A stretch of DNA of 63,885 bases, filler included, from Schmidtea nova (Eukaryota): assembly GCA_044892505.1 (NCBI GenBank). It is 4 parts of 2 records of this genome, joined end to end, with 100 filler letters (N's around TTAATTAATTAA, not from the genome) between each part and the next. Parts side by side here need not be neighbours in the genome. Positions count along the whole stretch, not along the records: positions 29,798 to 59,552 come from CM097882.1; 3 more parts are not named here. One strand, given 5' to 3'. The first letter of the stretch is position 1; the number at the start of each line of letters is the position of its first letter. Shown here piece by piece: positions 33,973-35,349 of the stretch. The notes below the pieces were generated by a model. That model was not told the origin of the DNA. It made no database searches and saw nothing but the letters and a program-made list of their open reading frames with translations. The translations under genes were made by a program, and so were the position numbers.

Positions 33973-35349
33973 TTACGCCAACCATCCTTTTCTATCCGTT
34001 TTCTCGTGTTTCTCCATCTCTATGTATAAAGTGTCCTCGTATAGTCGTTCCCATAGGTTTTCTTTTCTTATAAACATTGGTTCTCCTGCTGCTAGTCCGC
34101 ATTCTGTTGTTGGTTTTTCACTCGTACTCGTATGTTTGTCTGTCTCGAAGAATTTTTCCACCGGTTTCCCCATACTTCTGATTCTTATAATGACTCCTAC
34201 TTTCAAGGGCCATTCTATTAGGTCATCGTATTCTCCTTTACATAACGAGAAAAATATTGACACGTGTGTTCCTTGTCCTCTTCCGTCTCCATTTGGGTAT
34301 ACCTTCAATCTTATTTTAACCCCATTTTTCCATAAATAAAATGGTGGGCTTATTACTGCTGTTTTAGTCATATTTCGGGCTTCTGTTAGTTTGTCTCTGA
34401 AATCTGTTATTTTCCATAGGTAAGGTGCAATTGGTAAGTCCCTTCTTTCGTCAATTTCTCGTATTAATTGATTATATTGTATCTTCATTCCTTTTCCCAA
34501 TTCTTCTATGGCTATTATTTTTTCTTCCATTCTTTCGCGAGTTAGTTCAAACTGCTCTCTCGTTTCTAGTAGTAAACTCATCATTATTTTATGTGATTCT
34601 ACTTCCTTTTCCAGTTTCTGGATTGTCTGTTCCGTTTCTTTTGCCGCTTCGTTTGTCATCTCCACATGCATTAATGCTGCTTCTTCTAGATGCTGTTTCA
34701 TTGTTTGCCGCGTTCGCTTCTCCTTGCATCCCTGTTTGTTATATGGACATTCTCTTGGTCTTTCTGTACAATTTTCCCAATGTTCGCGTAACTTTATTTC
34801 TTCTGTTATTTCGCAATTGTTTGGACATTTGCTTATATATTGTCCGCATACTTTCTCCTCTGTTATATTCAAGTGTTCTTCTTCAATTTTCCTCCTTGTT
34901 TCTCGAGTTTCACAATACTTGCATGTGATTTCTTCTTCTCTACATTCGTCCTTGTGTTGTTCTCTCTTCTTTAGAATTATTGTCTGTTGACACTTCTCGC
35001 ATTTGGCTCTCTTTTCCTCGCATTTTTCCATATGATTCTCTAGATTGCTTATTTGTCCTTGCCATGTACAAGGTGTATTTACGCACTCCGTTATGGTGCT
35101 CATAATTTCTCTCTGGGTTGCTTTGTCCGTTCTGGTTTCGTCTAACACTATTCTTCCTTCTTTACATTCTGGGCATGTTGTTGTTTCTGTTGCATCTAAT
35201 TCTTGTATACATTTTGTACATATTCTACATCCACATATCGTTTGTCTGGGTTCTCGTAGTAAATTGTTACATTTTCCGCATGTGAGCCTCTTGCTCCATT
35301 TTCTGTCTTCTAGTCTCAAAATTTCGATTATTTGTTCTTCTCTGTCCAT
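33973..35349 (-). CDS. Full-length TRAF-family protein (RING, TRAF zinc fingers, coiled coil, MATH/TRAF-C)
   Basis: CGKCNNLLREPRQTICGCRICTKC..CPEC RING; repeated C-N-x-C..H..C fingers; WKITDF..SPPFY..IRLKVYPNGDGRGQGTHVSIFFSLCKGEYDDLIEWP MATH signature. Confidence 0.95.
   Translation of the reverse strand: MDREEQIIEILRLEDRKWSKRLTCGKCNNLLREPRQTICGCRICTKCIQELDATETTTCPECKEGRIVLDETRTDKATQREIMSTITECVNTPCTWQGQISNLENHMEKCEEKRAKCEKCQQTIILKKREQHKDECREEEITCKYCETRETRRKIEEEHLNITEEKVCGQYISKCPNNCEITEEIKLREHWENCTERPRECPYNKQGCKEKRTRQTMKQHLEEAALMHVEMTNEAAKETEQTIQKLEKEVESHKIMMSLLLETREQFELTRERMEEKIIAIEELGKGMKIQYNQLIREIDERRDLPIAPYLWKITDFRDKLTEARNMTKTAVISPPFYLWKNGVKIRLKVYPNGDGRGQGTHVSIFFSLCKGEYDDLIEWPLKVGVIIRIRSMGKPVEKFFETDKHTSTSEKPTTECGLAAGEPMFIRKENLWERLYEDTLYIEMEKHEKTDRKGWLA

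Follow-up and report, generated by a model that had tools for sequence, protein, structure and literature searches.

The closest described systems are the Burro (GYPSM1) elements, giant Gypsy retroelements of planarians with an internal region of up to 25 kb and a total length of about 30 kb or more. They are reported to carry an env between gag and pol and to contain MATH_TRAF_C, BIR, BCL2-like and ankyrin motifs, several of the BIR, BCL2-, SUMO- and dUTPase-like motifs having been detected by HHpred only (PMC6431247). The same account places MATH_TRAF_C inside the polyprotein in S. mediterranea and in an upstream accessory ORF in Dugesia tigrina (PMC6431247). The IAP region of Burro1 is reported to protect stem cells (PMC13465017). 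On the host side, 121–282 MATH/TRAF transcripts of unexplained origin have been described in planarians (PMC6109357, PMC7586133), and RNAi of two TRAFs in S. mediterranea is reported to increase cell death and to be lethal (PMC7586133). A TRAF is also known from a fish DNA virus, the megalocytivirus ISKNV, whose 296-aa ORF111L binds TRADD and promotes caspase-8 death according to the published description (PMC3352826). Giant viruses have TRAF-like proteins too.

Here we analyse a 63,885-nt window (the whole stretch of DNA, spacers included) from Schmidtea nova. Four contigs make it up, separated by spacers, and the third (29798–59552, preceded by a spacer at 29698–29797) holds a gag-env-pol LTR retroelement of ~29 kb, which is built like planarian Burro and is assigned to Ty3/Gypsy by its LTRs, its gag knuckle and the order protease, RT, RNase H, integrase. 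From 5′ to 3′ the element consists of an LTR, an ORF with an IAP-type RING, tandem repeats, gag, an env-like frame, protease, RT, RNase H, integrase, ankyrins, a long tail, four short genes (118 aa, TRAF, 353 aa and 186 aa) and a second LTR (Table 1). The internal region measures 23.3 kb, and the total reaches ~29.4 kb if the inferred LTR length of 3045 bp is right. Shared with the Burro elements as described are the size of ~30 kb, a mononegaviral-type env between gag and pol, ankyrins, tandem repeats and a cargo of RING plus MATH/TRAF (PMC6431247). The published description gives Burro a MATH_TRAF_C domain only, whereas a full RING–finger–coil–MATH gene lies here downstream of pol, within a four-gene cassette. 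The BIR, BCL2-, SUMO- and dUTPase-like parts of Burro find no Pfam or PDB match in this element.

Table 1. Features of the Schmidtea nova element and of its TRAF gene, in window positions.
Feature	Position	Strand	Basis
3′ LTR with TG start, truncated at the contig end	29798..31951	-	direct repeat
Accessory ORF of 186 aa with acceptor-like start; by eye, N-terminus hydrophobic and one segment TM-like	32155..32715	-	ORF
Accessory ORF of 353 aa with acceptor-like start, resembling a coiled coil	32795..33856	-	ORF, Pfam
TRAF ORF, 458 aa, single exon	33973..35349	-	ORF call, Pfam, PDB matches, AlphaFold, Foldseek
MATH/TRAF-C domain of TRAF, aa 310–446; peptide groove altered at about aa 403–423	34012..34422	-	MATH, E 6e-22
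Long helix/coiled coil of TRAF, aa 225–300	34450..34677	-	AlphaFold model
Five TRAF-type zinc fingers, aa 89–228	34666..35085	-	zf-TRAF, E 7e-8; conserved ligands in alignment
RING of TRAF, aa 24–62; eight ligands, all Cys, with CGC where CGH is usual	35164..35280	-	alignment, crystal-chain matches
Gap 5′ of TRAF, 92 bp; AATAAA copies, T-richer stretch, putative acceptor-like TAG three bases before ATG	35350..35441	-	sequence
Accessory ORF of 118 aa with acceptor-like start; nothing above cut-off in Pfam	35442..35798	-	ORF, Pfam
Same-frame continuation past stop; repeats pol-tail unit; TM-like end	35924..36799	-	ORF, repeat
RT–RNase H–integrase–ankyrin frame, long tail	36800..44878	-	Pfam
Aspartic protease, first part, ended by in-frame stop	44879..45154	-	Pfam, stop
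Env-like frame between gag and pol; frame differs from that of gag in this copy	45155..48550	-	Monjiviricetes fusion glycoprotein
Gag frame, CCHC knuckle	48537..52943	-	Pfam
Leader tandem repeats, 32- and 29-bp units	53508..53986		repeat search
5′ accessory ORF, 167 aa, IAP-type RING, without BIR match	54428..54931	-	Pfam, PDB chains
Putative primer-binding site, starts TGG	55238..55255	-	position after inferred LTR end
5′ LTR, start TG at 58306, inner end 55262 (CA) inferred; two ORFs without assigned family; donor-like GTAAGT at 55490	55262..58306	-	repeat shows 56154–58306

The direct repeats at 29798–31951 and 56154–58306 are 99.63% identical, with seven substitutions and a single gap separating them over 2154 bases, and such near-identity of the LTRs points to a recent insertion. 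The window contains no tRNA gene with which the putative primer site could be compared. The RING of the 167-aa 5′ ORF matches cIAP2 and XIAP chains (E 3e-10 to 1e-9), and the env-like frame matches PF24664 at 45155–48505 (E 2e-69). A single continuous gag-env-pol frame is described for Burro. In this copy the frame shifts near 48540, and in-frame stops interrupt it at 45155, 44879 (within the protease) and 36800. The LTR divergence predicts ~1.2 stops, so part of these interruptions could be programmed signals, or errors of the assembly. In the nearest pol relatives (46–50% identity), gag, env and pol follow one another in the same order within a single frame, which is continuous in P0064 and P0074, for example. 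No MATH match was found among 14 related polyproteins, nor a TRAF match among 78 related loci, most of them short or distant; TRAF cargo is not universal in the element clade.

Several further features of the element and its relatives were recorded. Past the integrase, the pol frame (35924–41600, minus strand) contains ankyrins, TM-like segments and a repeated unit that resembles FN3 at weak scores only (E 0.2–0.8); a similar ankyrin-to-TM tail is seen in the relative L001. The ~3-kb LTRs contain ORFs of 166 aa (56488–57010, minus; 30155–30655, minus, in the 3′ LTR) and 202 aa (55737–56345, minus) without Pfam match, the 166-aa ORF being open in the 3′ LTR and frame-shifted in the 5′ LTR. A BCL2-like segment suspected by eye at 47450–47950 (minus) gained no confirmation: it drew no Pfam or PDB support, and its single-sequence model (pLDDT 46) was too poor to judge by. 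Ubiquitin-like and dUTPase-like look-alikes at 48540–48860, 49320–49700 and 44330–44758 (all minus) likewise matched nothing in Pfam or PDB; in the relative P0064, ubiquitin is weakly matched (E 4e-5) in the stretch from gag to env. The clade P0060–P0101 comprises gag-env-pol elements with varied cargo, including extra aspartic-protease domains, ankyrins and an Ig domain (P0086), and the more distant P0110 carries a PHAX RNA-binding domain. In L001 (49% pol identity), two downstream ORFs at 7283–8743 and 9043–10374 look DEDDh-type exonuclease-like by eye and are separated by a duplicated ~45-bp block. Elsewhere in the window lie a fragment of a protein-primed-type DNA polymerase B, Polinton-like and cut by a contig end (6401–9870, minus), a LINE-like end that bears zf-RVT, immediately beyond the 5′ LTR (58504–59322, plus), LINE-like pieces at 27942–29600 (plus) and 125–1157 whose RT fragment is repeated at 95–99% in another contig, and, at the window end, an ORF that weakly matches C2-set immunoglobulin (63156–63881, minus).

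The ORF at 33973–35349 is a complete four-module TRAF between the LTRs. As the earlier note had claimed, the gene is intronless and intact: RING, five fingers, coiled coil and MATH lie in one 458-codon frame, which opens with an ATG at 35349, ends with a TAA at 33973–33975 and contains zero internal stops. In 1000 base shuffles of the region, the longest open stretch averaged 54 codons and never exceeded 133. All eight RING ligands are present (C24, C27, C39, C41, C44, C47, C59 and C62). Pfam zf-C3HC4_4 scores the RING at E 0.005 only, below cut-off; residues 1–160 match the N-terminal crystal chains of TRAF6, TRAF5 and TRAF2 (E 3e-14 to 8e-10). The best PDB sequence match of the protein is TRAF3 (E 7e-24), with TRAF5 and TRAF2 also among the best. 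An AlphaFold model (mean pLDDT 83) shows a 75-residue helix at 225–300 and strands at 310–448, its top PDB matches in Foldseek are TRAF chains (TRAF1/2/3/5, E ~1e-13), and an ESM Atlas search likewise confirmed the TRAF identity.

The CGC at aa 39–41, where CGH is usual, had been singled out as an altered RING position. The cysteine is real in the sequence and is not peculiar to this gene. Among 119 TRAF relatives with the motif, CGH occurs in 88, CGC in 17 and other forms in 14 (43 of the 162 proteins are without the motif). Cysteine occupies this position in seven of the eight planarian-type alignment rows that have a RING, including all three named ones, and CGC also occurs in three echinoderm TRAF3-like proteins. 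A RING lesion was therefore ruled out: because the variant is common to planarian relatives and echinoderm TRAFs, it is a family trait rather than damage, and the element RING appears to be an undamaged eight-cysteine variant. The residue before the second RING cysteine, which we take to be an E2-contact position, is Lys in the element TRAF and Ile in TRAF6 chains.

Receptor binding by TRAF1/2/3/5 is described as using three hot spots, namely a hydrophobic pocket, a serine triad and a polar pocket (PMC6125299). We transferred the hot-spot numbering to the element TRAF through the TRAF3 alignment, so that the residues named here follow an inferred mapping. On this mapping, the polar residues K349/Y351/D355 and the pocket phenylalanines F366 and F401 are kept, the serine triad reads T-S-T, and the equivalents of TRAF2 F456 and C469 are S410 and E423. 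The groove aromatic of all 13 relatives compared is Ser410 in the element, and P403 and N418, each found in 12 of the 13, are lost. The element TRAF lacks the full set of three TRAF1/2/3/5 receptor-binding hot spots, and its ligand preference has probably changed, to judge from these substitutions. Scanning 11 element frames for PxQx[T/S/D] gave no match in ten and two chance-level matches in gag.

Full-length relatives are 24–27% identical to the element TRAF by word-indexed search and about 25–36% by full scan, and no close relative occurs in the libraries searched. Ten best matches were looked up, nine compact and one of 714 aa; the four that are named are all planarian (three from Dendrocoelum lacteum and one from Dugesia japonica). 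In a FastTree of 93 rows, built from the 92 of 162 matches that passed a length and motif filter, the element TRAF falls in an 11-row clade with all four named planarian TRAFs (support 99). IQ-TREE on 37 hand-picked rows recovers a 12-row group with the element TRAF at 94/94, the starred set of 14 at 96/93 and P0213/P0234 as sister rows at 91/96. The element TRAF has a long end branch (1.3 changes per site in IQ-TREE) and an atypical letter make-up, and a place just outside the 13 compact planarian-type rows, an alternative chosen after seeing the tree, is not rejected by the AU test (p 0.33). The phylogeny with TRAFs that the earlier note had proposed as a check thus groups the gene with planarian TRAFs, placing it in or next to the planarian-type group.

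The host TRAFs of planarians (Dendrocoelum TRAF-2/-4/-5, Dugesia TRAF2-like A; Smed-TRAF-2A/B) resemble the element protein in their compact length of 450–490 aa, CGC RING, finger ligands and tree neighbourhood. The element TRAF differs from them in its identity of 27–31% to the named planarian proteins, its A-rich sequence, its changed groove and its location in a mobile element. We consider it likely, from these comparisons, that the gene was captured long ago from the planarian-type family of the host. Of the suggestion that it came from a host mRNA, the host origin gains support from the planarian relatives and the trees, and the mRNA route is plausible because the gene is single-exon. Among TRAF relatives with DNA context, 20 pattern matches on metagenome contigs and 16 on viral contigs yielded none confirmed. 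Seven matches to longer fused TRAF forms are multi-MATH proteins without pol domains, which is weak evidence. Ranked by summed score, the TRAF searches are headed by P0193 and P0015–P0021, proteins in which MATH-like units recur many times in tandem, with as many as 19 stretches matched. Like the element protein, the viral TRAF ORF111L is described as combining RING, coiled coil and MATH (PMC3352826). It differs in that the available account mentions no finger array and in being pro-death, opposite to the survival role that we propose below (PMC3352826). We infer that ORF111L and the element TRAF are independent captures.

Copies of the region 32000–36800 were surveyed in four public runs from one organism and one study. 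The runs hold 1348, 1109, 2103 and 1399 contigs over this region, with 30 of 30 bins covered in all four; likeness to the element ranges from above 99% to under 90%, and contig depth gives no copy number. One contig runs across the TRAF stop and continues into the element DNA beyond it. Contig pieces within TRAF that align without gaps show 50–51 differences in 260–270 bases (~18%). The 12 indels listed, out of 47, all lie outside the TRAF ORF; some contigs skip parts of it, 34440–34976 at low depth and 34437–34582 at a depth of ~400. Among the 40 best-supported of 844 variant places, 6 of the 13 TRAF variants are silent against 27% expected (p 0.11), as are 15 of the 34 over all accessory ORFs (p 0.024).

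The composition of the gene bears on how long it has resided in the element. Four-fold sites of TRAF are A at 88 and T at 7 (68% A, 5% T), and those of gag-env-RT are A at 614 and T at 111 (54–60% A, 7–12% T). The LINE and DNA-polymerase frames of the window have A at 142 and T at 231 (23–34% A, 44–48% T), from which TRAF differs with p 9e-24. The residues E, K, R, T and Q together make up 46% of the element TRAF versus 28–35% of 13 relatives, and of the 55 columns on which 90% or more of the relatives agree the element protein retains 51, as against 65 of 326 variable columns. Such drift of silent sites and amino acids to the element bias, with the ligands held, argues for selection during residence, and part of the amino-acid constraint may predate capture. 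The intact frame of this copy alone is uninformative, since only 0.1 stops are expected in TRAF since insertion. On these sequence grounds, TRAF appears to be a standing accessory gene of a multi-copy element family rather than a one-off passenger. The opposing case named in the earlier note, a gene present in this copy only or evolving neutrally, is at odds with the many divergent copies, the element base bias and the 51 of 55 conserved columns.

The four genes downstream of pol are spaced by 79–125 bp, and at each of them a T-richer stretch is followed by TAG, two or three A's and ATG, the AGs ending at 35802, 35353, 33859 and 32718. TAG-AA(A)-ATG, a motif defined post hoc, occurs five times in the 23.3 kb, four of these at the four downstream accessory starts; the total of five against 2.2 expected is unremarkable. 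TAG stands at the same spacing before 23 of 517 ATGs, and the start of the 5′ IAP-type RING ORF is without the motif. The relative L001 has two downstream accessory genes, one of which begins directly after a T-rich AG. We read the TAGs as putative 3′ splice sites; the A-run may be mere start-codon context. The gaps come close to the spacing peak of ~100 bp reported for trans-splicing-resolved operons of the flatworm Macrostomum (PMC8629364). A candidate donor, the GTAAGT at 55490 in the LTR, is one of four such sites in 26 kb, with 8.5 expected and thus not above chance. AATAAA occurs seven times in 412 bp of gaps versus 2.6 per kb in coding DNA, a comparison confounded by A+T content. Cis-splicing of a common leader and host spliced-leader trans-splicing may both be compatible with the cassette.

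We propose, with a probability of about one half, that the element TRAF is a standing multi-copy accessory gene, captured long ago from the planarian-type family and expressed from its own spliced message, whose product serves as an adaptor through which host stress and death signalling is shifted in favour of survival, in those cells where the element copies itself. Reverse transcriptase would have captured a host mRNA, and an LTR-promoter transcript would now be spliced, in cis or to a spliced leader in trans, onto the acceptor just before the TRAF ATG. The protein would form trimers through its coiled coil and MATH domain, as other TRAFs do. With its drifted groove and whole RING and fingers, signalling could be partly uncoupled from the usual receptor tails and run beside the element's own IAP-type RING, and survival of the host cell would benefit the element. 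We favour survival because planarian TRAFs are needed for it, the Burro1 IAP is reported to protect stem cells and this element bears an IAP-type RING. Some precedent lies in the Burro1 B-IAP, a host-derived anti-death cargo of a planarian giant element; that protein combines BIR and RING and its function is described as tested, whereas here a TRAF accompanies a RING-only IAP-like ORF (PMC13465017).

The other roles that we weighed draw on much of the same evidence. The element TRAF could instead join host TRAF trimers or sequester their partners as an immune decoy, dampening innate or stress signalling against the element. The drifted groove (Ser410, with P403 and N418 lost) would suit this tentative reading, as a mixed trimer could bind receptors poorly. 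Textbook TRAF dominant negatives are RING-less, whereas the element protein keeps eight RING ligands and five fingers, so the dominant-negative action suggested at the outset does not fit in its classical form. The polar hot spot K349/Y351/D355 and F366/F401, as mapped, are also kept. Planarian TRAFs are reported to respond to microbial patterns (PMC7958881), which is in keeping with a decoy; TRAF loss is lethal in S. mediterranea (PMC7586133), however, so a strong block would hurt the element's own host cell.

A changed groove with a whole RING would equally serve a redirected ubiquitin-ligase adaptor, its new target being a host restriction factor or the Gag, Env or membrane proteins of the element itself. 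In complex retroviruses, accessory genes turn host machinery to such ends, and the element, like these viruses, has an acceptor-led accessory cassette; it also bears an env. We regard this use as unlikely: PxQx[T/S/D] is missing from all scanned frames save gag with its chance-level matches, and Lys in place of the TRAF6-type Ile before the second RING cysteine makes strong stand-alone ligase activity doubtful. Very improbable, in our judgement, is a processed host TRAF copy that hitch-hikes without function. The silent-to-replacement result in TRAF (p 0.11 among the 40 best-supported of 844 places), an intact frame expected by chance in a young copy and the existence of copies with TRAF deletions all accord with it, but full drift to the element's silent-site and amino-acid bias with 51 of 55 conserved columns held would require long selection, and the listed indels (0 of 12, from 47) spare the ORF. 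The pro-survival adaptor thus remains the reading that we prefer.

A MATH/TRAF domain in Burro is already known from the published description (PMC6431247). What the present analysis adds is the TRAF with all four modules after pol, the signs that it has long resided in the element, its altered groove and a cassette whose genes begin behind acceptor-like sites. Our literature search on TRAF and Burro returned PMC6431247 only, and no full-length retroelement TRAF was found among the matches listed; the primary Burro papers may describe one, or its splicing. More speculatively, host-derived signalling genes might be arranged in Burro-type elements as an operon-like cassette that splicing resolves, perhaps with the spliced-leader machinery of the host. 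A full-length TRAF with a re-cut groove would then regulate stem-cell survival, and element copies would form a real part of the planarian TRAF/MATH expansion; we put this fuller picture forward as a tentative possibility.

If functional, the gene would equip a retroelement with an entire signalling hub, as large DNA viruses are known to be equipped, and, beyond the tested Burro1 IAP, would open another arm of death and stress control to such elements. The acceptor-led cassette offers a concrete, checkable expression route for genes placed after pol. Burro-type elements may contribute to the planarian MATH/TRAF expansion, and mapping MATH/TRAF transcripts to element copies would reveal the share of mobile cargo in it.
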